From Escherichia coli (GTDB taxonomy: Bacteria > Pseudomonadota > Gammaproteobacteria > Enterobacterales > Enterobacteriaceae): a stretch of DNA of 64,000 bases. Below, one piece after another: positions 7,279 to 52,137 of this stretch; the stretch's first letter is position 1; every line of letters starts with the position of its first letter. Location: assembly GCF_044324785.1 (NCBI RefSeq), contig NZ_CP172127.1; one strand, written 5' to 3'. A model generated the notes under the pieces. That model made no database searches, was not told the DNA's origin, and saw only the letters and a list, made by a program, of their open reading frames with translations. The translations under genes were made by a program, and so were the position numbers.

Positions 7279-7538
7279 CACAAGGTCAGTCAATCTGACG
7301 AGGTGCTGAAAAAAAGTTAACGTCCTGGTAGGTGCAGGTGACTTCAGAAGATGGCAAAACAGGTAAGACCGCAGGCAGGATACACCGAGAGGTAACAAGG
7401 GCAAGTTAGCCCGTAGAGGATGATTGGTACCTGCCTGGCGGATTTCATCATGGTTCGGGATAAAAATCCCATCAGAAACCGGATATATGGCTGCACCTAC
7501 CCGTTTTATTACATAACTGAAGAAAGCATTGCATTCCG
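7279..7538 (+). ncRNA. candidate IS-encoded structured ncRNA (bridge/seek-RNA-like) in 3' non-coding end of the IS
   Basis: 260-nt non-coding stretch between transposase stop and right IR containing 11-bp long-range inverted repeat GGTAGGTGCAG (7327-7337) / CTGCACCTACC (7491-7501). Confidence 0.3.
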
Positions 7539-41326: not shown

Positions 41327-43360
41327 TTATTTCACCTGATGACCCGGTTTAGCACCGGCATCCGGGCTTAGCAGGAAAATATCTTTCCCGCCAGGACCGG
41401 CAGCCATCACCATGCCTTCAGAGATACCGAAGCGCATTTTACGTGGTGCCAGGTTAGCCACCATAATGGTGTGACGACCAATCAGTGCCTGCGGATCCGG
41501 GTAGGCAGAACGAATGCCGGAGAAGACATTGCGTTTTTCACCGCCGAGATCCAGCGTCAGGCGCAGCAGTTTGTCAGAACCTTCAACAAACTCTGCGTTT
41601 TCAATCAGCGCCACGCGCAGGTCAACTTTAGCAAAGTCGTCAAAGGTGATGGTTTCCTGAATCGGATCATCTGCCAGTGGGCCAGTAACTGGCGCGGCAG
41701 CTGCTTTCACTTCTTCTTTAGACGCTTCCACCAGTGCTTCAACCTGCTTCATATCGATGCGGTTATACAGCGCTTTGAACGGATTCACTTTGTGGCCCAG
41801 CAGCGGTTGCTGGATACCATCCCAGGTCAGTTCCGTATTGAGGAATGCTTCTGCGCGCTCGGTCAGTTTCGGCAGTACCGGCTTCAGGTAAGTCATCAGC
41901 ACGCGGAACAGGTTGATGCCCATCGAGCAAATTGCCTGCAGGTCGGCATCGCAGCCTTCCTGTTTCGCCACCACCCACGGAGCCTGTTCATCGACATAGC
42001 GGTTAGCCAGATCAGCCAGCGCCATGATTTCGCGGATCGCTTTACCAAATTCGCGGCTTTCCCATGCTTCACCAATCACTTCGGCGGCATCAGTGAAGGT
42101 TTTGTACAGTTGAGGGTCAGCCAGTTCGCTTGCCAGCACGCCGTCAAAACGCTTGTTGATAAAGCCAGCGTTACGGGATGCCAGGTTAACCACTTTATTC
42201 ACGATATCGGCATTCACACGCTGAACGAAATCTTCCAGGTTGAGATCGATATCATCAATGCGCGAAGAGAGTTTCGCAGTGTAGTAGTAACGCAGGCTGT
42301 CGGCGTCAAAATGATTCAGCCAGGTGCTGGCTTTAATAAAGGTACCGCGAGACTTAGACATCTTCGCGCCGTTCACCGTCACATAGCCATGAACAAATAG
42401 GTTGGTCGGCTTGCGGAAGTTGCTGCCTTCCAGCATGGCAGGCCAGAACAGGCTGTGGAAGTAAACGATATCTTTACCGATGAAGTGGTACAGCTCGGCG
42501 GTGGAATCTTTCTTCCAGTATTCATCGAAGCTGGTGGTGTCGCCGCGTTTGTCGCACAGATTCTTGAAGGAACCCATGTAGCCAATCGGCGCATCCAGCC
42601 AGACGTAGAAATATTTGCCCGGTGCGTTCGGAATTTCAAAACCGAAGTACGGCGCATCGCGGGAGATATCCCACTGTTGCAGGCCAGATTCAAACCACTC
42701 CTGCATTTTGTTTGCCACTTGCTCCTGCAACGCGCCGCTGCGGGTCCATGCCTGCAGCATTTCGCTGAAAGAGGGCAGATCAAAGAAGAAGTGTTCAGAA
42801 TCACGCATTACCGGCGTAGCACCAGAAACCACCGATTTCGGCTCGATCAATTCAGTCGGGCTGTAGGTCGCGCCGCAGACTTCGCAGTTATCGCCGTATT
42901 GATCCGGGGATTTACATTTCGGGCAGGTGCCTTTCACAAAACGGTCCGGCAGGAACATGCCTTTTTCCGGATCGTACAGCTGAGAAATAGTGCGGTTTTT
43001 AATAAAACCGTTTTCTTTCAGGCGAGAGTAGATAAGTTCTGACAACTGGCGGTTCTCTTCGCTGTGCGTCGAGTGATAGTTGTCATAGCTGATGTTAAAG
43101 CCTGCGAAATCAGTCTGATGCTCCTGACTCATTTCGCCAATCATCTGCTCCGGGGTGATACCAAGCTGCTGAGCTTTCAGCATGATCGGTGTACCGTGGG
43201 CATCGTCGGCGCAGATGAAGTTGACCTCGTGGCCGCGCATTCGCTGGTAACGGACCCAGACATCAGCCTGGATGTGCTCCAGCATATGGCCGAGGTGGAT
43301 TGAGCCGTTAGCGTACGGCAGTGCGCACGTCACCAGAATTTTCTTCGCGACTTGAGTCAT
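41327..43360 (-). CDS. metG: methionyl-tRNA synthetase
   Basis: 677 aa from ATG ([33 protein letters not shown] motif; KMSKS present). Confidence 0.95.
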
Positions 43361-43491
43361 AGTAGGCATTACTTCTTAATAGTGAAAAGGGGTTAGATAG
43401 TACCAAATGGGAAAATGTTAAGTAAGTACTTCTCTATATTCTTCAGGTAAACTATCAGCTGATGGTTTATCTATACAAAAAAGGAGTCGGG

Positions 43492-44601
43492 ATGAACGAA
43501 CAATCCCAGGCCAAATCACCAGAAGCCTTGCGCGCAATGGTCGCCGGGACACTGGCCAATTTTCAGCACCCAACCCTGAAGCATAACCTCACCACGCTGA
43601 AAGCGTTGCACCATGTCGCCTGGATGGACGACACGTTGCATGTGGAACTGGTTATGCCATTCGTCTGGCATAGCGCTTTCGAAGAGTTAAAAGAGCAATG
43701 TAGCGCCGAACTGCTGCGCATCACCGGGGCGAAAGCTATCGACTGGAAACTGTCGCACAATATCGCCACCTTAAAACGCGTGAAGAATCAGCCGGGAATT
43801 AACGGCGTGAAGAACATCATTGCGGTCAGCTCCGGTAAAGGCGGCGTGGGTAAATCCTCCACGGCGGTAAACCTGGCGCTGGCACTGGCGGCGGAAGGGG
43901 CGAAAGTCGGCATTCTGGATGCCGATATCTACGGCCCATCAATCCCCACCATGCTGGGCGCAGAAAATCAGCGTCCAACTTCGCCGGACGGTACCCATAT
44001 GGCACCGATTATGTCTCATGGACTGGCAACCAATTCAATTGGTTATCTGGTCACTGACGACAATGCGATGGTGTGGCGTGGTCCGATGGCGAGCAAGGCG
44101 TTAATGCAGATGTTGCAGGAAACCTTGTGGCCGGATCTCGACTATCTGGTGCTTGATATGCCGCCAGGTACCGGTGACATTCAATTGACACTGGCACAAA
44201 ACATTCCAGTAACTGGTGCGGTAGTGGTCACCACCCCACAAGACATTGCGTTGATCGATGCGAAAAAAGGCATTGTGATGTTCGAGAAAGTCGAGGTTCC
44301 GGTGCTCGGTATTGTCGAGAACATGAGTGTGCACATTTGCAGTAACTGTGGTCACCATGAACCAATTTTCGGTACCGGTGGTGCAGAGAAACTGGCCGAG
44401 AAATACCACACGCAGTTGCTGGGGCAGATGCCGTTACACATCTCCTTACGTGAAGATCTCGATAAAGGCACGCCAACGGTTATCAGCCGTCCGGAGAGCG
44501 AATTTACCGCTATCTACCGCCAGCTGGCTGACCGCGTTGCAGCCCAGCTTTATTGGCAGGGAGAAGTCATTCCTGGCGAGATTTCCTTCCGCGCGGTCTG
44601 A
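43492..44601 (+). CDS. mrp: Fe-S cluster carrier P-loop ATPase Mrp/ApbC
   Basis: 369 aa from ATG at 43492; Walker A SGKGGVGKSS; CxxC motif. Confidence 0.9.
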   Translation: MNEQSQAKSPEALRAMVAGTLANFQHPTLKHNLTTLKALHHVAWMDDTLHVELVMPFVWHSAFEELKEQCSAELLRITGAKAIDWKLSHNIATLKRVKNQPGINGVKNIIAVSSGKGGVGKSSTAVNLALALAAEGAKVGILDADIYGPSIPTMLGAENQRPTSPDGTHMAPIMSHGLATNSIGYLVTDDNAMVWRGPMASKALMQMLQETLWPDLDYLVLDMPPGTGDIQLTLAQNIPVTGAVVVTTPQDIALIDAKKGIVMFEKVEVPVLGIVENMSVHICSNCGHHEPIFGTGGAEKLAEKYHTQLLGQMPLHISLREDLDKGTPTVISRPESEFTAIYRQLADRVAAQLYWQGEVIPGEISFRAV

Positions 44602-44631
44602 CGCGTATTAACCTTTTTGGTTGTTTTTCAT

Positions 44632-44672
44632 ACACCGCAGAGATGTTACATTGATGCGGTGTATTTGTTTTT
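44632..44672 (+). terminator. rho-independent terminator of mrp
   Basis: ACACCGCA...TGCGGTGT stem followed by ATTTGTTTTT. Confidence 0.5.
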
Positions 44673-44863
44673 GCCGCATTAATGAACACTTATTTAATGC
44701 TGCGAATATTCTGCGGACCTTCGTCCGAAACTCTATAAAGTCGATTGATCGTACAGGCAATGCTTCATTATCATCCTTCGTGGCTGTGTAGTGGATGTAC
44801 AGCTATAGTTTGTTATGCACTCATTCTATCCAGGCATAACCTTTACTACAGGGATAACGTTCA

Positions 44864-45145
44864 ATGAATAAGTACTGGCTGTCAGGAATTATTTTTCTTG
44901 CCTATGGAATGGCTTCTCCCGCGTTCTCTTCACAGACTGCCACATTAACGATTAATGGCAGGATCAGTCCCCCAACATGCAGTATGGCTATGGTTAATGG
45001 TCAACCTCAACAGCATTGTGGTCAGTTAACGTATGATGTTGATACCCGTCATCAGGTTTCTTCGCCAGTCAAAGGTGTAACGACAGAAGTGGTTGTTGCA
45101 GGTAGCGATAGCAAACGTCGAATCGTGTTAAATCGCTACGATTAA
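44864..45145 (+). CDS. yehE: small secreted protein YehE
   Basis: 93-aa ORF with signal peptide. Confidence 0.7.
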   Translation: MNKYWLSGIIFLAYGMASPAFSSQTATLTINGRISPPTCSMAMVNGQPQQHCGQLTYDVDTRHQVSSPVKGVTTEVVVAGSDSKRRIVLNRYD

Positions 45146-45176
45146 TTTGCCACCCTGGTTTTTTAATCGGATTTAG

Positions 45177-45218
45177 AAAGCTGAAATCATTCGTGTGAAT
45201 GATTTCAGCTTTTTTATT
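45177..45218 (+). terminator. strong rho-independent terminator after yehE
   Basis: 15-bp perfect stem AAGCTGAAATCATTC-GTGT-GAATGATTTCAGCTT followed by TTTTTATT. Confidence 0.7.
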
Positions 45219-45440
45219 GATAGCAATAATGCCATTTACAAAAATCTGCATTAATTAATAGATGTGATAAATATTTAATATGCTTAAGTATTTGTTGTAT
45301 TTATATTGCAATAGTTAATTTGTTTTAAATCAATAAAACAATATGTTTACATTGCGGCAACTTTTTTGATGTGAGAAATTTGTTTCCAAGAGATACAGAC
45401 TCTTAACAACCAAAAAATAAATTTTATTAAGGAACATATT

Positions 45441-45983
45441 ATGAAACGTTCAATTATTGCTGCCGCTGTCTTTTCTTCTTTTTTTATGAGCGCCGGGGTA
45501 TTTGCCGCAGACGTTGATACCGGAACATTAACCATTAAAGGAAATATTGCAGAATCTCCGTGTAAATTCGAAGCGGGTGGCGATTCAGTAAGTATTAATA
45601 TGCCAACTGTACCAACCACTGTCTTTGAAGGTAAAGCTAAATACTCGACCTATGATGATGCAGTCGGTGTAACCAGCAGCATGTTAAAAATTAGCTGTCC
45701 GAAAGAAGTTGCTGGTGTAAAACTCTCGTTGATTACCAACGATAAAATAACCGGAAACGATAAGGCGATAGCCAGTAGCAACGATACCGTGGGGTACTAT
45801 CTCTATTTAGGTGATAACAGCGATGTCCTGGATGTTTCTGCACCTTTTAATATTGAGAGTTATAAAACAGCGGAAGGTCAATATGCTATTCCGTTTAAAG
45901 CAAAATACCTGAAGCTGACAGATAATTCAGTGCAATCAGGTGATGTGTTATCTTCTCTGGTTATGCGTGTGGCGCAGGATTAA
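45441..45983 (+). CDS. yehD: fimbrial major subunit (chaperone-usher pilus)
   Basis: 180-aa ORF with signal peptide and fimbrial subunit C-terminus; first gene of D-C-B-A operon. Confidence 0.8.
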   Translation: MKRSIIAAAVFSSFFMSAGVFAADVDTGTLTIKGNIAESPCKFEAGGDSVSINMPTVPTTVFEGKAKYSTYDDAVGVTSSMLKISCPKEVAGVKLSLITNDKITGNDKAIASSNDTVGYYLYLGDNSDVLDVSAPFNIESYKTAEGQYAIPFKAKYLKLTDNSVQSGDVLSSLVMRVAQD

Positions 45984-46019
45984 TAAATAAAACTTCAAGT
46001 TTCTCCAGGTAATAAACAT

Positions 46020-46046
46020 GGCCGCTATCCCCATGGCGGCCTTTTA
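46020..46046 (+). terminator. intra-operon attenuator hairpin between fimbrial subunit and chaperone genes
   Basis: GGCCGC...GCGGCC stem followed by TTTTAATTT. Confidence 0.4.
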
Positions 46047-46063
46047 ATTTAAGAGGCATTAAG

Positions 46064-46738
46064 ATGAAAGGATTATTTGCTTTACTCATTTCTTCTATGG
46101 TCCTTCCTGCACATGCCGGTATTGTTATCTACGGGACGCGTATTATTTACCCGGCAGAAAATAAAGAAGTGATGGTGCAGTTGATGAATCAGGGAAACCG
46201 TTCTTCGCTGCTGCAGGCGTGGATTGATGATGGTGATACGTCGTTACCACCAGAAAAAATTCAGGTTCCTTTCATGTTAACGCCACCAGTGGCAAAAATA
46301 GGGGCAAATTCCGGGCAGCAAGTAAAAATCAAAATTATGCCGAATAAACTGCCCACTAATAAAGAGAGCATTTTTTATCTGAATGTTCTGGATATTCCAC
46401 CAAATAGTCCAGAGCAAGAGGGCAAGAATGCACTGAAATTTGCAATGCAAAACAGAATCAAATTGTTTTACCGGCCTGCGGGTATTGCACCGGTAAATAA
46501 AGCGACATTTAAAAAATTACTGGTAAATCGCAGTGGCAATGGATTGGTGATAAAAAATGACTCAGCAAATTGGGTGACGATTTCGGATGTCAAAGCTAAT
46601 AATGTCAAAGTCAATTATGAAACTATTATGATTGCCCCCTTAGAAAGTCAGAGTATTAATGTCAAAAGTAATAATGCGAATAACTGGTATCTGACCATTA
46701 TCGATGACCATGGCAACTATATTAGTGACAAAATTTAA
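46064..46738 (+). CDS. yehC: periplasmic fimbrial chaperone (PapD-like)
   Basis: 224-aa ORF, signal peptide, Ig-like chaperone pattern. Confidence 0.8.
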   Translation: MKGLFALLISSMVLPAHAGIVIYGTRIIYPAENKEVMVQLMNQGNRSSLLQAWIDDGDTSLPPEKIQVPFMLTPPVAKIGANSGQQVKIKIMPNKLPTNKESIFYLNVLDIPPNSPEQEGKNALKFAMQNRIKLFYRPAGIAPVNKATFKKLLVNRSGNGLVIKNDSANWVTISDVKANNVKVNYETIMIAPLESQSINVKSNNANNWYLTIIDDHGNYISDKI

Positions 46739-46753
46739 TTGCAGGAGCTGCCT

Positions 46754-49234
46754 ATGTTGAGAATGACCCCACTTGCATCAGCAATCTTAGCGTTATTGCT
46801 CGGCATTGAAGCTTATGCAGCTGAAGAAACCTTTGATACCCATTTTATGATAGGTGGAATGAAAGACCAGCAGGTTGTAAATATTCGTCTTGATGATAAT
46901 CAACCCTTGCCGGGGCAGTATGACATCGATATTTATGTCAATAAGCAATGGCGCGGGAAATATGAGATTATTGTTAAAGACAACCCGCAAGAAACATGTT
47001 TATCAAGGGAAATTATCAAGCGGTTAGGCATTAATACCGATAACTTTGCCAGCGGTAAGCAATGTTTAACATTTGAGCAACTTGTTCAGGGTGGGAGCTA
47101 TACCTGGGATATCGGAGTTTTTCGTCTCGATTTCAGTGTCCCGCAGGCGTGGGTGGAAGAACTGGAAAGTGGCTATGTTCCACCGGAAAACTGGGAGCGG
47201 GGTATTAATGCGTTTTATACCTCTTATTATGTGAGTCAGTATTACAGCGACTATAAAGCGTCGGGTAATAGCAAGAGTACATATGTACGTTTTAACAGCG
47301 GGTTAAACTTACTGGGGTGGCAACTGCATTCTGATGCCAGTTTCAGTAAAACAAATAGCAATCCAGGGGTGTGGAAAAGCAATACCCTGTATCTGGAACG
47401 TGGATTTGCCCAACTTCTCGGCACGCTTCGCGTGGGTGATATGTACACATCAAGCGATATTTTTGATTCTGTTCGCTTCAGCGGTGTGCGGTTGTTTCGT
47501 GATATGCAGATGTTGCCTAACTCGAAACAAAATTTTACTCCACGGGTGCAGGGGATTGCTCAGAGTAACGCGCTGGTAACTATTGAACAGAATGGTTTTG
47601 TGGTTTATCAGAAAGAGGTTCCTCCTGGCCCGTTTGCGATTACAGATTTGCAGTTGGCCGGGGGGGGAGCGGATCTTGATGTCAGCGTGAAAGAGGCGGA
47701 CGGTTCGGTAACCACCTATCTGGTGCCTTATGCAGCGGTGCCAAATATGCTGCAACCCGGCGTGTCGAAATATGATTTTGCGGCGGGTCGTAGCCATATT
47801 GAAGGGGCGAGCAAACAAAGTGATTTTGTTCAGGCGGGTTATCAGTATGGTTTTAATAACTTATTGACGCTGTATGGCGGATCGATGGTCGCGAATAATT
47901 ATTACGCGTTCACTTTGGGGACTGGCTGGAATACACGCATTGGTGCCATTTCCGTCGATGCCACGAAGTCGCATAGTAAACAAGACAACGGCGATGTGTT
48001 TGACGGGCAAAGTTATCAAATTGCCTACAACAAATTTGTGAGCCAAACGTCGACGCGTTTTGGTCTGGCGGCCTGGCGTTATTCGTCGCGTGATTACCGG
48101 ACATTTAATGATCACGTTTGGGCAAACAATAAAGATAATTATCGCCGTGATGAAAACGATGTCTATGACATTGCCGATTATTACCAGAACGATTTTGGCC
48201 GTAAAAATAGCTTCTCTGCCAATATGAGCCAGTCATTGCCAGAAGGCTGGGGTTCTGTGTCCTTAAGTACGTTATGGCGAGATTACTGGGGGCGTAGCGG
48301 CAGCAGTAAGGATTATCAGTTGAGTTATTCCAACAACCTGCGACGGATAAGCTATACCCTCGCGGCAAGCCAGGCTTATGACGAGAATCATCATGAAGAG
48401 AAACGTTTTAATATTTTTATATCGATTCCCTTTGATTGGGGGGATGACGTTACGACGCCTCGTCGGCAAATATATATGTCTAACTCAACGACGTTTGATG
48501 ATCAGGGGGTTGCCTCAAATAATACGGGATTATCGGGAACCGTTGGAAGCCGGGATCAATTTAACTATGGGGTCAACCTGAGTCATCAGCATCAGGGAAA
48601 TGAAACGACAGCTGGAGCGAATTTAACCTGGAACGCGCCGGTGGCAACGGTGAATGGCAGTTATAGTCAGTCGAGTACTTATCGACAGGCTGGAGCCAGT
48701 GTTTCAGGGGGCATTGTCGCTTGGTCGGGTGGCGTTAATCTGGCGAACCGTCTTTCCGAAACGTTTGCTGTGATGAATGCGCCAGGAATTAAAGATGCTT
48801 ATGTCAATGGGCAAAAATATCGCACAACAAACCGTAATGGAGTGGTGGTATACGACGGAATGACACCTTATCGGGAAAATCACCTGATGCTGGATGTGTC
48901 GCAAAGCGATAGCGAAGCAGAATTACGTGGCAACCGGAAAATTGCCGCCCCTTATCGCGGCGCGGTTGTACTGGTTAATTTTGATACCGATCAGCGCAAG
49001 CCCTGGTTTATAAAAGCATTAAGAACGGATGGGCAACCATTAACGTTTGGTTATGAAGTCAATGATATCCATGGTCATAATATTGGCGTTGTCGGCCAGG
49101 GAAGCCAGTTATTTATTCGCACCAATGAAGTACCGCCATCGGTTAATGTAGCAATTGATAAGCAACAAGGACTTTCATGCACAATCACCTTCGGTAAAGA
49201 GATTGATGAAAGTAGAAATTATATTTGCCAGTAA
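46754..49234 (+). CDS. yehB: outer-membrane fimbrial usher
   Basis: 826 aa from ATG at 46754 (MLRMTPLASAILALLLGIEAYA). Confidence 0.85.
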   Translation: MLRMTPLASAILALLLGIEAYAAEETFDTHFMIGGMKDQQVVNIRLDDNQPLPGQYDIDIYVNKQWRGKYEIIVKDNPQETCLSREIIKRLGINTDNFASGKQCLTFEQLVQGGSYTWDIGVFRLDFSVPQAWVEELESGYVPPENWERGINAFYTSYYVSQYYSDYKASGNSKSTYVRFNSGLNLLGWQLHSDASFSKTNSNPGVWKSNTLYLERGFAQLLGTLRVGDMYTSSDIFDSVRFSGVRLFRDMQMLPNSKQNFTPRVQGIAQSNALVTIEQNGFVVYQKEVPPGPFAITDLQLAGGGADLDVSVKEADGSVTTYLVPYAAVPNMLQPGVSKYDFAAGRSHIEGASKQSDFVQAGYQYGFNNLLTLYGGSMVANNYYAFTLGTGWNTRIGAISVDATKSHSKQDNGDVFDGQSYQIAYNKFVSQTSTRFGLAAWRYSSRDYRTFNDHVWANNKDNYRRDENDVYDIADYYQNDFGRKNSFSANMSQSLPEGWGSVSLSTLWRDYWGRSGSSKDYQLSYSNNLRRISYTLAASQAYDENHHEEKRFNIFISIPFDWGDDVTTPRRQIYMSNSTTFDDQGVASNNTGLSGTVGSRDQFNYGVNLSHQHQGNETTAGANLTWNAPVATVNGSYSQSSTYRQAGASVSGGIVAWSGGVNLANRLSETFAVMNAPGIKDAYVNGQKYRTTNRNGVVVYDGMTPYRENHLMLDVSQSDSEAELRGNRKIAAPYRGAVVLVNFDTDQRKPWFIKALRTDGQPLTFGYEVNDIHGHNIGVVGQGSQLFIRTNEVPPSVNVAIDKQQGLSCTITFGKEIDESRNYICQ

Positions 49235-49249
49235 TAGTCAGGTGGTTCT

Positions 49250-50284
49250 ATGAAAATTCGCATAATGCTATTTATATTAATGATGATGGTTATGCCTGTG
49301 AGCTATGCGGCATGTTATAGTGAGTTATCTGTTCAGCACAATTTGGTTGTTCAGGGGGATTTTGCACTTAGTCAAACACAAATAGCGACATATGAGCATA
49401 ATTTTAATGATTCGTCATGCGTGAGTACAAATACTATCACCCCTATGAGCCCATCGGATATTATTGTTGGACTTTATAACGATACCATTAAATTAAATTT
49501 ACATTTTGAATGGACCAATAAAAACAACATCACGTTGTCAAATAATCAGACCAGTTTCACCAGTGGTTATTCGGTAACGGTGACACCTGCGGCCAGTAAT
49601 GCAAAAGTGAATGTTTCTGCGGGGGGCGGCGGTTCAGTGATGATTAATGGTGTTGCGACATTATCCAGTGCTTCATCATCGACACGCGGGAGTGCTGCAA
49701 TACAATTTTTACTGTGTTTATTCGGTGGCAAGTCATGGGATGCATGTGTAAATAGCTACAGAAATGCATTGGCACAAAATGCAGGTGTCTATTCCTTTAA
49801 TCTGACATTGTCATACAACCCGATAACCACAACCTGCAAACCGGACGATTTATTAATTACTTTAGAGAGTATTCCCGTTTCACAATTACCAGCCACAGGT
49901 AACAAAGCAACAATAAATAGTAACAAAGGGGATATTGTTCTGCGTTGTAAAAACTTATTAGGTCAACAAAATCAAACATCACGGAAAATGCAGGTGTATT
50001 TATCAAGTTCTGACTTGTTAAACAACAGCAACACGATACTTAAAGGTGCAAAAGATAATGGCGTAGGATTTGTTCTTGAAAGTAATGGTTCGTCAGTCAC
50101 ACTTTTAAATATCACTGACAGCAGTAAAGGATACACAAATTTAAAAGAAATTGCGGCGAAGTCAAAACTTACAGATACAACGGTTTCAATTCCGATAACA
50201 GCCAGTTACTACGTCTACGATACAAACAAAGTTAAATCTGGCGCACTGGAGGCAACCGCATTAATCAACGTGAAATACGACTAA
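49250..50284 (+). CDS. yehA: fimbrial adhesin-like protein
   Basis: 344-aa ORF, signal peptide, Ser/Thr/Asn-rich. Confidence 0.8.
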   Translation: MKIRIMLFILMMMVMPVSYAACYSELSVQHNLVVQGDFALSQTQIATYEHNFNDSSCVSTNTITPMSPSDIIVGLYNDTIKLNLHFEWTNKNNITLSNNQTSFTSGYSVTVTPAASNAKVNVSAGGGGSVMINGVATLSSASSSTRGSAAIQFLLCLFGGKSWDACVNSYRNALAQNAGVYSFNLTLSYNPITTTCKPDDLLITLESIPVSQLPATGNKATINSNKGDIVLRCKNLLGQQNQTSRKMQVYLSSSDLLNNSNTILKGAKDNGVGFVLESNGSSVTLLNITDSSKGYTNLKEIAAKSKLTDTTVSIPITASYYVYDTNKVKSGALEATALINVKYD

Positions 50285-50340
50285 TAACAAGCAAGACGAG
50301 CAAGTGGCTAATAATAAAAAATAATAAGGTGTCTGCATTT

Positions 50341-50359
50341 CCCCCTCATGATGAGGGGG
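50341..50359. terminator. terminator hairpin between convergent yehA and rcnB
   Basis: CCCCCTCATGATGAGGGGG palindrome followed by CTTTTCTT. Confidence 0.5.
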
Positions 50360-50365
50360 CTTTTC

Positions 50366-50704
50366 TTAGCGATGATAAAAAATCTCACCGTCGTAGGCTT
50401 TAATGATTTTACCGTCGGTGTCGCTGATCAACACGTATGCGCCACCCATATAGGTCCAGTGCGTTCCGGCATCAGGCGCGGGCAGATTACGTAACTGCCA
50501 CTGCTTAATGTTGTACTCATCGGTGCGGTACATCTCTGGGACGGTATCGCCTGGTTTGAAATGCTTAAAGTCAGCAATGAAACTGCTTAACTCATACTTA
50601 GAAATTCCCGAGGTATTGGTCGAACCCGCGGTGGCTGGTGCGGCCCAGGCGGCACTGGTAACCAGCAAAAGCACACCCAGCAACATCTTATTTTTAATGG
50701 TCAT
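50366..50704 (-). CDS. rcnB: periplasmic nickel/cobalt homeostasis protein RcnB
   Basis: 112 aa from internal ATG (MTIKNKMLLGVLLLVTSAAWA). Confidence 0.85.
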   Translation of the reverse strand: MTIKNKMLLGVLLLVTSAAWAAPATAGSTNTSGISKYELSSFIADFKHFKPGDTVPEMYRTDEYNIKQWQLRNLPAPDAGTHWTYMGGAYVLISDTDGKIIKAYDGEIFYHR

Positions 50705-50922
50705 AAACTCTCCACTTTGGGGATCTGTAATATCAGTCGCATATCTTTCCTGCCATACAATATAACTGACAAGCGATATTTTGTTAGTGATCCCATGATT
50801 TCGTAAAAAGTGTAAATGAAAGGATGCCCTAAAAGCATCCTTAGCGAGCAGAGAGTCAGCGGAAATAGCTGATTTAAGAATCATCCTGGGCTGAAGATAA
50901 CATGCAAGCCTAAAGGATTGAG

Positions 50923-51744
50923 TTATCGCATTATGCCCATAAAGCCATGCACACCCATATACACACCAACTAAGCCAATCAACAGACTGGAAAAATAGGG
51001 GGCGCGTTTAGCGAGAGTGTTAAATCCGCTCCAACGTTTTGCGACCTGCTGAACGCTGATTGCTGCGCCAACGCCTACGGTGACCAGCGTTAACGCCAGG
51101 CCGATGCTGAAACTGACGACCAGTGTTGCGCCCAGTGTCAGGGCTTTCAACTGAATGCAAATCAACAGCACGGTAATTGCTGCCGGGCAGGGGATAAGGC
51201 CACCGGTTAAGCCAAATAACAAAATTTGCCAGTTGGTGACCTCTCTACCATCAAAGCGTCGTTTAATGTCATTGGCATGGGCTCGTGCATGAGCATCCTG
51301 ATACTCCCCATGTTCGTGATGGTGATGATGTCCATGGTCGTGGTGATCTTCGTGATCGTGATGATGCTCATGATCATGCCCGTGCATATTCTCCAGCCAG
51401 TTGCGTTCGCCGCGCCAGGTACGCCAGAACATCCAGAACGCGGTGCCAATAATGATCACCGCGGAAATCAACTGGAGCCACGGTTCCGCCGACTGCGCAG
51501 TAAAGCGTTTGCTGATCACCATCCCGCCAAAGGCAATCAACCAGACCACTGCGGTATGCGAAATGGTTGCTGCCAGTCCGAGCATCACCGCCTGTTTAAT
51601 GGTGCCTTTGATGGCGATGATAAACGCCGCCATCATCGTTTTTGAGTGCCCTGGTTCCAGGCCATGAAGCGCACCAAGTAAGATGGCGCTGGGGATGAAG
51701 AACCAGGCGTTTCCTTGCTGAAGAAGAGTGGTAAATTCGGTCAT
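50923..51744 (-). CDS. rcnA: nickel/cobalt efflux protein RcnA
   Basis: 273-aa membrane ORF with His-rich loop HGHDHEHHHDHEDHHDHGHHHHHEHGE. Confidence 0.9.
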   Translation of the reverse strand: MTEFTTLLQQGNAWFFIPSAILLGALHGLEPGHSKTMMAAFIIAIKGTIKQAVMLGLAATISHTAVVWLIAFGGMVISKRFTAQSAEPWLQLISAVIIIGTAFWMFWRTWRGERNWLENMHGHDHEHHHDHEDHHDHGHHHHHEHGEYQDAHARAHANDIKRRFDGREVTNWQILLFGLTGGLIPCPAAITVLLICIQLKALTLGATLVVSFSIGLALTLVTVGVGAAISVQQVAKRWSGFNTLAKRAPYFSSLLIGLVGVYMGVHGFMGIMR

Positions 51745-51781
51745 GATAATAATTCTTAGTATTAATTCGGCAATCCGATTC

Positions 51782-51816
51782 TACTCCCCCCCAGTACCTG
51801 ATACTACCCCCCAGTA
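51782..51816. promoter_or_regulatory. RcnR operator: tandem TACT-C7/C6-AGTA sites in rcnA-rcnR divergent intergenic region
   Basis: TACTCCCCCCCAGTA (51782-51796) and TACTACCCCCCAGTA (51802-51816). Confidence 0.7.
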
Positions 51817-51864
51817 GATTAATAGTGCTATGATTTTTCATGTTCTTGTTAACCAGGTGTTGCC

Positions 51865-52137
51865 ATGTCTCATACCATCCGTGATAAACAGAAACTGAAA
51901 GCGCGTGCCAGTAAGATTCAGGGCCAGGTCGTGGCGCTCAAGAAAATGCTCGACGAGCCGCACGAATGCGCTGCAGTTTTACAACAGATTGCTGCTATCC
52001 GTGGCGCGGTAAACGGTCTGATGCGGGAAGTGATTAAAGGTCATCTGACGGAACACATCGTTCACCAGGGGGATGAGCTAAAACGTGAAGAAGATCTGGA
52101 TGTCGTTCTGAAGGTGCTGGATTCTTATATCAAATAA
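51865..52137 (+). CDS. rcnR: Ni/Co-responsive transcriptional repressor RcnR (CsoR/RcnR family)
   Basis: 90-aa [32 protein letters not shown]. Confidence 0.9.

Follow-up and report, generated by a model that had tools for sequence, protein, structure and literature searches.

The 64 000-nucleotide stretch of Escherichia coli DNA considered here (contig NZ_CP172127.1; referred to as a whole as the window) carries the yeh chaperone-usher fimbrial locus, which encodes a pilus of the gamma-4 chaperone-usher class (PMC12778044, PMC11287998). This is the core-genome yeh cluster of E. coli, the orthologue of Salmonella stc, and it is already known. The locus itself offers nothing new: its core adhesin, the solved domain and its pectin ligand, and the inputs from H-NS, SlyA, CsrA, and ethanolamine have all been described. 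The items of modest specialist value are a conserved promoter-proximal block with a palindrome upstream of yehD, a small protein, YehE, that appears to bear a pilin-type donor strand, and the start of yehC in strain K-12. Practical corrections concern this yehC start, gene names that are reversed between naming schemes, a proposed 'attenuator' whose U-tract is allele-specific, and an 'insulation' of yehE that is unproven. The features of the locus, in window coordinates, are as follows.

44745-44774, plus strand: candidate sigma-70-like promoter for yehE (TTGATC, 18-nt spacer, TATCAT; 9/12 matches in a consensus scan)
44864-45145, plus strand: yehE, an uninterrupted open reading frame (ORF) of 93 aa; Pfam DUF2574
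45175-45218, plus strand: hairpin 1, the intrinsic-terminator structure of yehE (16-18 bp stem, GUGU loop, T6-A-TT tail)
45219-45290, plus strand: distal AT-rich spacer (GC ~0.24; 0.40-0.61 identity to other lineages; inside a published promoter island, PMC3661553)
45291-45410, plus strand: putative promoter-proximal control block of yehDCBA (120 bp, strongly conserved; palindrome, TTTACA, small stem)
45426-45437, plus strand: yehD Shine-Dalgarno region, AUUAAGGAACAU, which contains GGA
45441-45983, plus strand: yehD, major pilin subunit, 180 aa; Pfam Fimbrial
46020-46050, plus strand: hairpin 2, an intercistronic GC-rich hairpin (9-bp stem, CCCC loop, then UUUUAAUUU; terminator scan), candidate partial terminator and/or 3'-protective structure
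46064-46738, plus strand: yehC, PapD-like periplasmic chaperone, 224 aa; Pfam PapD_N and PapD_C
46754-49234, plus strand: yehB, outer-membrane usher, 826 aa from ATG (the ORF opens at TTG 46739)
49250-50284, plus strand: yehA, two-domain tip adhesin, 344 aa (receptor-binding domain 21-193, pilin domain 184-344)
50341-50369, plus strand: terminator-like hairpin at the operon end (8-bp stem with 6 G-C pairs, then CTTTTCTT; terminator scan)

Gene content and conservation of the locus

All five Yeh proteins were assigned to their Pfam families above the gathering score. YehD scored 31.2 bits against PF00419 (cut-off 25.6), which identifies it as a pilin-domain subunit, and its family profile matched the solved FimA and FimF chains. 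Both chaperone domains are present in YehC (PapD_N, E = 3e-41; PapD_C, E = 3e-8), and the usher YehB is uninterrupted, with matches to PapC_N, Usher (651.7 bits, E = 1.5e-195), and PapC_C. Identity to the K-12 proteins is 96-99% from end to end for YehD, YehC, YehB, and YehA (99.4% for YehD and 98.2% over the full-length alignment of YehB) and 94% for YehE. The initial annotation had described a complete and intact chaperone-usher locus; this is borne out by the five ORFs at the coordinates above, by their Pfam families, and by the end-to-end alignments to the K-12 proteins, in which no frameshift was found in the usher, the chaperone, or the other three.

The adhesin YehA has two domains. Its residues 21-193 match the structures 9N4G, 9N4I, and 9N4H in the PDB ('YehD protein'; E = 1.6e-107), residues 184-344 are a Pfam Fimbrial domain, and the protein scores 676 bits against NCBIfam NF011788. 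The receptor-binding domain of the Yeh adhesin has been solved and binds pectin (PMC12778044), and the N-terminal match to it therefore marks the window protein as a Yeh-type, predicted pectin-binding, adhesin allele. The names used by the Hultgren laboratory follow the order of transcription, so that yehA denotes the major subunit and yehD the adhesin; the K-12 and RefSeq names are the reverse (PMC12778044).

The 5.7-kb yeh stretch, annotated as yehE-yehA, has a match in 5423/5426 complete E. coli genomes, and in 5221 of these the match covers 80% or more of the stretch. Only 13 genomes are at least 99% identical over the 5.7 kb, which indicates that the window holds a non-K-12 allele. The gene neighbourhood reads metG, mrp (apbC), yehE-yehD-yehC-yehB-yehA, rcnB-rcnA-rcnR, thiM, and other Escherichia species, Citrobacter, and Salmonella share the synteny mrp-yehE-yehDCBA-rcnB, as has been stated for Yeh and Stc (PMC3559732). 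In genes, gene order, position between mrp and rcnB, and type of adhesin, the window locus shows no essential difference from E. coli yehDCBA and Salmonella stcABCD.

A conserved block within the AT-rich region upstream of yehD

The intergenic region between yehE and yehD is 295 bp long with a GC content of 0.25; GC lies at 0.235-0.29 over 45200-45499, compared with ~0.5 in the flanks. Several studies have dealt with this spacer in K-12, where it is catalogued as an H-NS-bound 'promoter island' (PMC3661553) and lies within a silenced, static extended protein-occupancy domain, the loss of which did not on its own induce yehDCBA (bioRxiv 10.1101/2024.06.20.599902). The operon belongs to the H-NS regulons of K-12 and is up 3.6-fold on SlyA overproduction (PMC5797941), and the O157 yeh promoter was active in reporter fusions, with higher activity at 28 °C, according to Low et al. 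2006 as cited in PMC7098969. The earlier description of an AT-rich region typical of silenced fimbrial promoters agrees with both the base composition found here and the published K-12 data.

Comparison across lineages shows that this region consists of two parts, a distal part that resembles generic AT-rich DNA and a proximal part that is conserved, and this division is the new point. Of the whole yehE-yehC stretch, the 30-column windows covering 45312-45371 have the highest conservation among 13 taxa, with a mean pairwise identity of 0.83-0.92. The full block at 45291-45410 is 97% identical to the O157-type allele, compared with 76-80% for the yehE and yehD coding sequences (synonymous divergence, dS, of 0.7-1.2), and 74-81% identical to Salmonella and Citrobacter, compared with 44-46% for yehD. 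A single copy of its central 90 bp is present in each of 5311/5426 E. coli genomes. The spacing of ~105 bp between the core of the block and the subunit ATG downstream is constant, even in a plasmid-borne yeh-like operon and in a rearranged locus where the DUF2574 gene is divergent.

Three elements can be distinguished within the block. The first is TTGTTTTA-AATCAA-TAAAACAA at 45320-45341, a perfect palindrome with a single occurrence within the window. It is followed by GTTTACATTGCGGCAAC at 45345-45361, which holds a -35-like TTTACA at 45346-45351, and by a small AAGAG/CUCUU stem at 45388-45404. The possibility that the 22-bp palindrome acts as an RNA hairpin was considered and rejected, as the fold is weak (-4.4 kcal/mol) and the substitutions in O157, MOD1, and E. 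albertii are non-compensatory; a DNA-level site seems more likely. The non-compensatory substitutions, together with the lack of a convincing -10 element, lead us to read the block as a DNA-level module, in which a core promoter and an operator for some factor would place constraints on the sequence. Such a module fits the published failure of occupancy loss alone to induce yehDCBA. The near-invariant palindrome, TTGTTTTA-N6-TAAAACAA, may be a candidate operator for a regulator specific to the Yeh pilus. Sites for IHF, CRP, FNR, OmpR, CpxR, and SlyA were sought in the block by informal comparison with the consensus sequences by eye, with unconvincing results, and none is claimed.

The yeh spacer resembles the H-NS-silenced 'promoter islands' found before cryptic fimbrial operons, in that it is AT-rich, ~300 bp long, and itself on the published list (PMC3661553). 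It differs from them in that only the distal part is generic; conservation of the proximal 120 bp far exceeds that of neutral or coding DNA, a sign that this sequence is recognized specifically, over and above coating by H-NS. Identifying what recognizes the conserved block, along with the role of YehE, could account for the silence of the locus under laboratory conditions and for its failure to respond when only H-NS occupancy is lost.

Between the block and the yehD ATG, the AAGGAA site is invariant in 13 taxa. In enterohaemorrhagic E. coli (EHEC), CsrA binds the 5' untranslated region of yehD at the GGA adjacent to the start and promotes YehD expression (PMC11287998); the window allele differs from the EHEC sequence just past this GGA. 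The DNA encoding the yehD signal peptide (window 45432-45490) has a mean pairwise identity of 0.79-0.88 compared with 0.45-0.7 in the remaining gene, and this conservation may reflect a constraint from translation initiation. The 100 nt upstream of yehDCBA (K-12 2190295-2190394, U00096.2; window ~45340-45440) were ranked 21 among riboswitch candidates by a structural-entropy classifier (PMC4448311). The same stretch was found here to hold only a weak 5-bp stem (-4.7 kcal/mol, z = -1.5).

The probable yehE unit and its intrinsic-terminator structure

Directly upstream of the AT-rich region, and 30 nt past the TAA stop codon of yehE, lies hairpin 1. It has 16 Watson-Crick pairs, formed by 45177-45192 with 45197-45212, or 18 when a basal G-U and A-U are counted, and reads AAAGCUGAAAUCAUUC-GUGU-GAAUGAUUUCAGCUUU followed by UUUAUU (downstream letters TTTTTTATT). 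The folding energy of 45175-45214 is -23.5 kcal/mol (z = -6.4), and none of 200 dinucleotide shuffles was equally stable. The consensus terminator scan missed this structure because maximal extension of the stem swallows the T-run. The initial annotation had given yehE a strong terminator with a 15-bp stem at 45177-45218, which is essentially right, the stem being slightly longer.

Among 14 aligned taxa, 95.5% of the pair cells of hairpin 1 are paired, compared with 35-48% in controls in which the 3' arm was slid. Eight of the 16 pairs have changed on both sides, and none of 500 shuffles reached the observed values; since kinship among the sequences can inflate the shuffle test, the slid control and the number of pair types carry more weight. 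The hairpin is kept across Escherichia, Salmonella, and Citrobacter, and in 19/20 loci a DUF2574 gene is followed by a hairpin, often with an unrelated stem sequence. At the apical position, G-U occurs more often than any other pair type, and the copy in Citrobacter MGH106 has five G-U pairs. By its stability and covariation, hairpin 1 has the character of a strong, evolutionarily maintained intrinsic-terminator structure.

At its other end, the candidate yehE promoter is also conserved. The -35 hexamer TTGATC is kept in 11/12 aligned taxa, with locus L016 diverging, and the candidate -10 in Escherichia, Citrobacter, and Salmonella is TATCAT, TACAAT, TACCAT, or TATAAT. In structural terms, yehE looks like a self-contained monocistronic unit. 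That it can be independent follows from locus L014, where yehE is oriented divergently from the operon.

The description of yehE as 'insulated' holds in part. The gene has its own conserved promoter-like site and terminator; on the other side stands the PtetA::ECs2914-ECs2918 construct of Elpers and Hensel, which gave Yeh fimbriae only after induction (PMC7098969) and whose primers map exactly to the ATG of the yehE homologue and the stop codon of the adhesin in the O157 locus. Either hairpin 1 was therefore read through, or the YehE protein is needed. A literature search for 3'-end data on the yeh locus returned nothing relevant.

The hairpin between yehD and yehC and the start of yehC

A second hairpin follows the major subunit gene. 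At 46020-46041 the sequence reads GGCCGCUAU-CCCC-AUGGCGGCC, with 6 G-C pairs in the stem and the tail TTTTAATTT, and it folds at -15.7 kcal/mol (z = -3.3; 0/200 shuffles equally stable). As had been noted from the sequence, this is the weaker of the two hairpins (-15.7 vs -23.5 kcal/mol), yet it has the more canonical, GC-rich terminator shape. A GC-rich hairpin is found at the position after the subunit gene in 17/17 yeh-like operon loci, with sequences that are unrelated between lineages. Within Escherichia, two pairs show compensatory change and 97% of cells are paired, compared with 17-61% in slid controls. A permissive Rfam scan of 43300-52000 gave no match to hairpin 2; its only two hits, at the yehE hairpin, were at chance level (E = 0.7-0.8) and far below the gathering scores.

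The T-rich tail past hairpin 2 belongs to the K-12/window-type allele and is found partly in a few others, such as L016 (TGTTTTCG). The proposal of an 'attenuator' between subunit and chaperone genes is accordingly sustained only in part: the hairpin is constant in 17/17 loci and has a GC stem and a U-tract here, but the U-tract is allele-specific. The conserved role of hairpin 2 is at least as likely to be protection of the 3' end, or processing, of the pilin message as termination, and it is plausible that partial intrinsic termination was added in the window allele, as an attenuator for stoichiometry.

Known fimbrial systems offer parallels for an element of this type. In papBA and cfaAB, an RNase-resistant terminator-like hairpin bounds the 3' end of the pilin message and leads to an excess of major subunit (PMC5927463); by comparison, a regulator gene and an RNase E site lie before the stabilized cistron in pap, and the yeh U-tract varies among lineages. 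In the fimA-fimI spacer, too, the major-subunit gene is followed at once by a GC-rich hairpin, with the next cistron beyond it. In K-12 this fim spacer (L023, 1175-1209) is annotated as FimR2, a CsrA-binding RNA of 35 nt that RNase E processing releases from the fim transcript. There is no sequence similarity between the fimA-fimI and yeh spacers, the downstream gene in yeh is the chaperone, and any yeh RNA species is only hypothetical.

Hairpin 2 also bears on the start of yehC. A Shine-Dalgarno sequence, AAGAGG, lies at 46051-46056, and the arrangement AAGAGG-N7-ATG is conserved and gives a protein of 224 aa, which is the length of the large E. coli YehC protein clusters. The K-12 gene is annotated as 239 aa, from an ATG in the 5' arm of hairpin 2 (window 46018-46066; L001 5590-5646, minus strand). 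This upstream ATG is in frame in K-12 because the loop there is CCC instead of CCCC; in the window it is out of frame. The K-12 yehC start is probably mis-annotated.

The YehE protein

YehE matches PF10836 (DUF2574) over the full profile, positions 1-93/93 (172.7 bits, E = 1.4e-51). It has an N-terminal segment that resembles a signal peptide, and is predicted to be one, a pilin-type extension motif TATLTINGRISPPTC, two cysteines (C39 and C52), and an invariant C-terminus, IVLNRYD. The ratio of nonsynonymous to synonymous divergence (dN/dS) is 0.18-0.44 among 12 orthologues without stops, indicating purifying selection, and dN between genera is 0.36-0.47 for yehE vs 0.75-0.80 for the major subunit. 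We found nothing in the literature on a function for yehE or DUF2574, and recent Yeh papers describe a four-gene minimal operon in which YehE goes unmentioned (PMC12778044, PMC11287998).

The N-terminus of YehE is related to that of the major pilin. Residues 1-42 align with the YehD family with an hhalign probability of 96% (E = 1e-9) when the signal peptide is included, and the mature protein aligns with the YehD N-terminus at the identical position with a probability of 79-92% (E = 1.5e-5 to 5.5e-7). The mature N-terminus, SDtaTLTInGrv..pTC, has C39 inside the motif. In the YehD family profile, the YehD segment GTLTIKG...C is aligned with FimA GTVHFKGEVVNAAC, and the YehE motif lines up with FimA, FimI, FimF, and FimG when these proteins are aligned directly with MAFFT. 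From what is known of type 1 pili, we take this aligned N-terminal segment of FimA and YehD to be the donor strand.

No such relationship was found for the rest of the protein. The C-terminal 51 residues are predicted to be beta-rich and hold the second cysteine, C52; YehE has no PF00419 Fimbrial match in Pfam, and profile comparison of these 51 residues with the YehD and YehA pilin bodies was not significant (E = 0.24-0.59). With no significant pilin-body similarity in these residues, YehE is, on present evidence, not a pilin. The resemblance of the ends, IVLNRYD in YehE and LINVKYD in YehA, was considered as a sign of kinship and set aside: the profiles align end to end, but with E = 0.24. 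Nor did pairwise BLASTP comparison of YehE with YehD or with YehA give a significant match. Searching 1.84 billion representative proteins with the YehE family profile returned 32 hits, about a dozen of them full-length clusters; all 32 are short DUF2574 proteins or fragments except for four larger proteins (288-1811 aa) with short partial matches, and full-length pilins were not among the 32.

Structural approaches were also attempted. Neither a sequence search nor a query with the 25-aa N-terminal peptide matched YehE to a solved structure. An AlphaFold2 model from a 17-sequence alignment had a mean predicted local distance difference test (pLDDT) score of 62.7, which allows no conclusion on the fold, and Foldseek of this low-confidence model against the PDB gave no match at E <= 0.001. 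Modelling of a YehC-linker-YehE fusion from 16 paired orthologues was uninformative, with a mean pLDDT of 54 and the chaperone N-domain below 50. Both tests failed because the alignment depth was too low, and a search for more diverse YehC homologues returned close relatives only.

The closest parallels are PapH, which terminates the pilus, and FimI, both non-polymerizing pilin-like subunits. YehE shares with them a putative signal peptide, the first cysteine, and a motif that resembles a donor strand (x-T-L-T-I-x-G-x-[IV]), and, like pilins, which end in Y-Q or Y-D, it ends in Y-D. In contrast to PapH and FimI, mature YehE has only ~71 residues, lacks a Fimbrial domain, and comes from a gene outside the operon that has a candidate promoter and a terminator structure of its own. 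YehE might serve Yeh-type pili as a dedicated accessory factor, a secreted mini-protein that is transcribed on its own and has a pilin donor strand and no pilin body; we regard this as a rather unlikely but attractive suggestion. The strand could insert in the groove of YehD or YehA pilins, or could occupy the chaperone or usher, and in this way cap, anchor, prime, or throttle fibre growth. An accessory role would fit the conservation of yehE between genera above that of the major subunit, and the fact that the one construct with visible Yeh pili began at yehE and needed induction. It would also fit the retention of a promoter-side position after relocation or inversion: DUF2574 lies at the promoter side of a yeh-like operon in the canonical locus, in L021 in the same orientation, and in L014 divergently, with a shared 483-bp spacer.

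A two-unit model and alternative explanations

Taken together, these observations probably describe two transcription units, and we hold this model with good confidence. In the first, yehE alone would be transcribed from 44745-44774, with most transcripts ended at 45175-45218, judging from structure and covariation. The second, yehD-yehC-yehB-yehA on the plus strand, would be driven from the 295-bp AT-rich intergenic region, which according to the work of others in K-12 is coated by H-NS and silent in the laboratory. The distal part of this region would be generic AT-rich DNA, and the proximal 120 bp would contain the core promoter and operator. Translation of yehD would start from the invariant AAGGAA site, which is bound by CsrA in EHEC. 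By analogy with papBA, cfaAB, and fimA, hairpin 2 and the following UUUUAAUUU would make the yehD segment the most abundant, with a fraction of polymerases stopped and the 3' end protected from exonucleases. The chaperone, usher, and adhesin would be translated from read-through transcripts, whose 3' end would lie at the hairpin at 50341-50359, and the products would assemble a thin, flexible pilus by donor-strand exchange, the established pathway of this family. Electron microscopy has revealed Yeh pili when the O157 Sakai locus was expressed from Ptet (PMC7098969).

Several points weigh against this model. We infer the promoters, termination at either hairpin, and the yehD:yehC ratio. A simple scan found 11 sigma-70-like sites in the AT-rich region vs 17 in shuffles, which by so crude a measure is not the density of a 'promoter island', and no credible -10 hexamer lies 16-18 bp past TTTACA (the candidates are ATGTGA and TGTGAG); the real yehD start site may be elsewhere. 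The pili obtained with the PtetA construct suggest that insulation by hairpin 1 is incomplete, at least under strong plasmid-borne transcription. After hairpin 2, a T-run comparable to that of the window is absent from the O157-type allele, from Salmonella (S. arizonae among them), and from several other lineages, such as L012 and L019, all of which keep the hairpin, and since the U-tract is missing in most of the hairpin-keeping lineages, termination is not the conserved function of this element.

The question of insulation leads to the alternative that yehEDCBA is a five-gene operon, with hairpin 1 as a leaky attenuator and much of the expression arising by read-through from the yehE promoter. 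The inducible construct starting at the yehE ATG would fit this arrangement, as would the shared orientation and adjacency of the genes in nearly all loci, and the protein-occupancy preprint writes of a 'yehEDCBA operon' (bioRxiv 10.1101/2024.06.20.599902). We nevertheless consider it unlikely. Hairpin 1 with its U-run is strong, and compensatory changes have preserved it; this terminator is separated from yehD by a conserved control block; and yehE is divergent in L014 and absent from the plasmid operon L022, which keeps the yehD-proximal motif. The SlyA and EHEC studies take yehDCBA as the unit (PMC5797941, PMC11287998), and the dependence of pili on induction could mean instead that the YehE protein is needed. 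It is highly improbable that the palindrome at 45177-45212 is a DNA operator for a dimeric protein instead of an RNA terminator, as might be supposed from its perfect 16-bp inverted repeat and its nearly invariant apex, ATCATT...AATGAT. Several copies pair through G-U, which is possible only in plus-strand RNA and therefore marks an RNA structure in the sense of yehE; the same pair is an A-C mismatch on the other strand, and as DNA its dyad symmetry is broken. The lower-stem sequence has also been replaced wholesale with pairing retained, and the element lies ~30 nt past a stop codon with a T-run on the coding strand only.

For hairpin 2, a real possibility, although we give it less than an even chance, is that it serves as an element of RNA stability or processing and not as a terminator, blocking 3'-to-5' exonucleases after cleavage so that the yehD message outlives the distal part, with the U-tract being incidental. 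The presence of a hairpin in 17/17 loci and of a T-rich tail in only some lineages argues for this, and the four genes of the EHEC yeh operon, whose allele lacks the U-tract, were found on one transcript by reverse transcription PCR, and are thus co-transcribed across the junction (PMC11287998). Precedents are found in papBA and cfaAB (PMC5927463), and in the RNase E processing of the fimA-fimI spacer. The window allele, by comparison, has the sequence features of an intrinsic terminator, and the two roles are not exclusive. It is very unlikely that the yehD-yehC spacer gives rise to a stable small RNA derived from a 3' untranslated region, acting in trans on targets in the manner of FimR2. 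The position just past the major-subunit gene is the same and ends in a GC hairpin, the sequence right upstream of hairpin 2 is moderately conserved within Escherichia, and the yeh system is linked to CsrA (PMC11287998). FimR2, however, requires a GGA in its loop for CsrA binding, and no GGA motif is found in 45984-46063, which spans the hairpin loop and spacer. The hairpin is unrelated in sequence to FimR2, without an Rfam match at E <= 1, and unlike a conserved seed it has been swapped outright between genera, with no single-stranded sequence conserved across them.

Divergent alleles and relocated loci

An O157-type allele (L002 6001-11419) occupies the same mrp-rcnB position in ~409/5426 genomes. 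The N-terminal domain of its adhesin is unrelated to that of the window YehA, only residues 151-344 being alignable, at 43%. For its yehE, yehD, and yehC, dS is 0.7-1.2 vs 0.13 for the adjacent mrp, an excess that indicates an old, divergent allelic lineage. In O157 Sakai, yeh and yeh-like are separate clusters (PMC7098969).

Related operons are also found on plasmids. Locus L022, on the 116-kb plasmid NZ_JBWDPM010000001.1 (1886-8732), is a four-gene yeh-like operon between IS1 and an IS3-family element, with the conserved promoter motif kept and no yehE. Plasmid matches numbered 14 for the 90-bp block and 39 for a 1.2-kb region.

DUF2574 genes occur in other settings as well. In L014, a (CTGCTT)n tandem repeat (7330-7373) lies directly 3' of the DUF2574 terminator hairpin, ~55-100 nt past the stop codon. 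Orphan DUF2574 genes in L018 (7001-7276) and L020 (5001-5270) have no adjacent chaperone-usher operon; both adjoin a ybhG/F/S/R-like ABC transporter, and the L018 gene adjoins a 5.8-kb stretch free of ORFs, possibly an rRNA operon. The L020 copy has lost both cysteines.

Neighbouring features

The hairpin at the operon end (50341-50359, then CUUUUCUU) folds at -14.4 kcal/mol (z = -2.5) and lies between the convergent yehA and rcnB, with a T-run on the plus strand only. In the mechanical ORF list, rcnB (window 50366-50884, minus strand) has 172 aa, and the annotated protein has 112 aa (50366-50704); the upstream extension of the ORF is probably not real. On the other side of the locus, a hairpin 3' of mrp (apbC), at window 44630-44672, reads AUACACCGCA...UGCGGUGUAU with a U-run and folds at -17.6 kcal/mol (z = -3.7). 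Its arms co-vary across genera, as CACCGCA/TGCGGTG vs CACCACA/TGTGGTG, and it is probably the mrp terminator.

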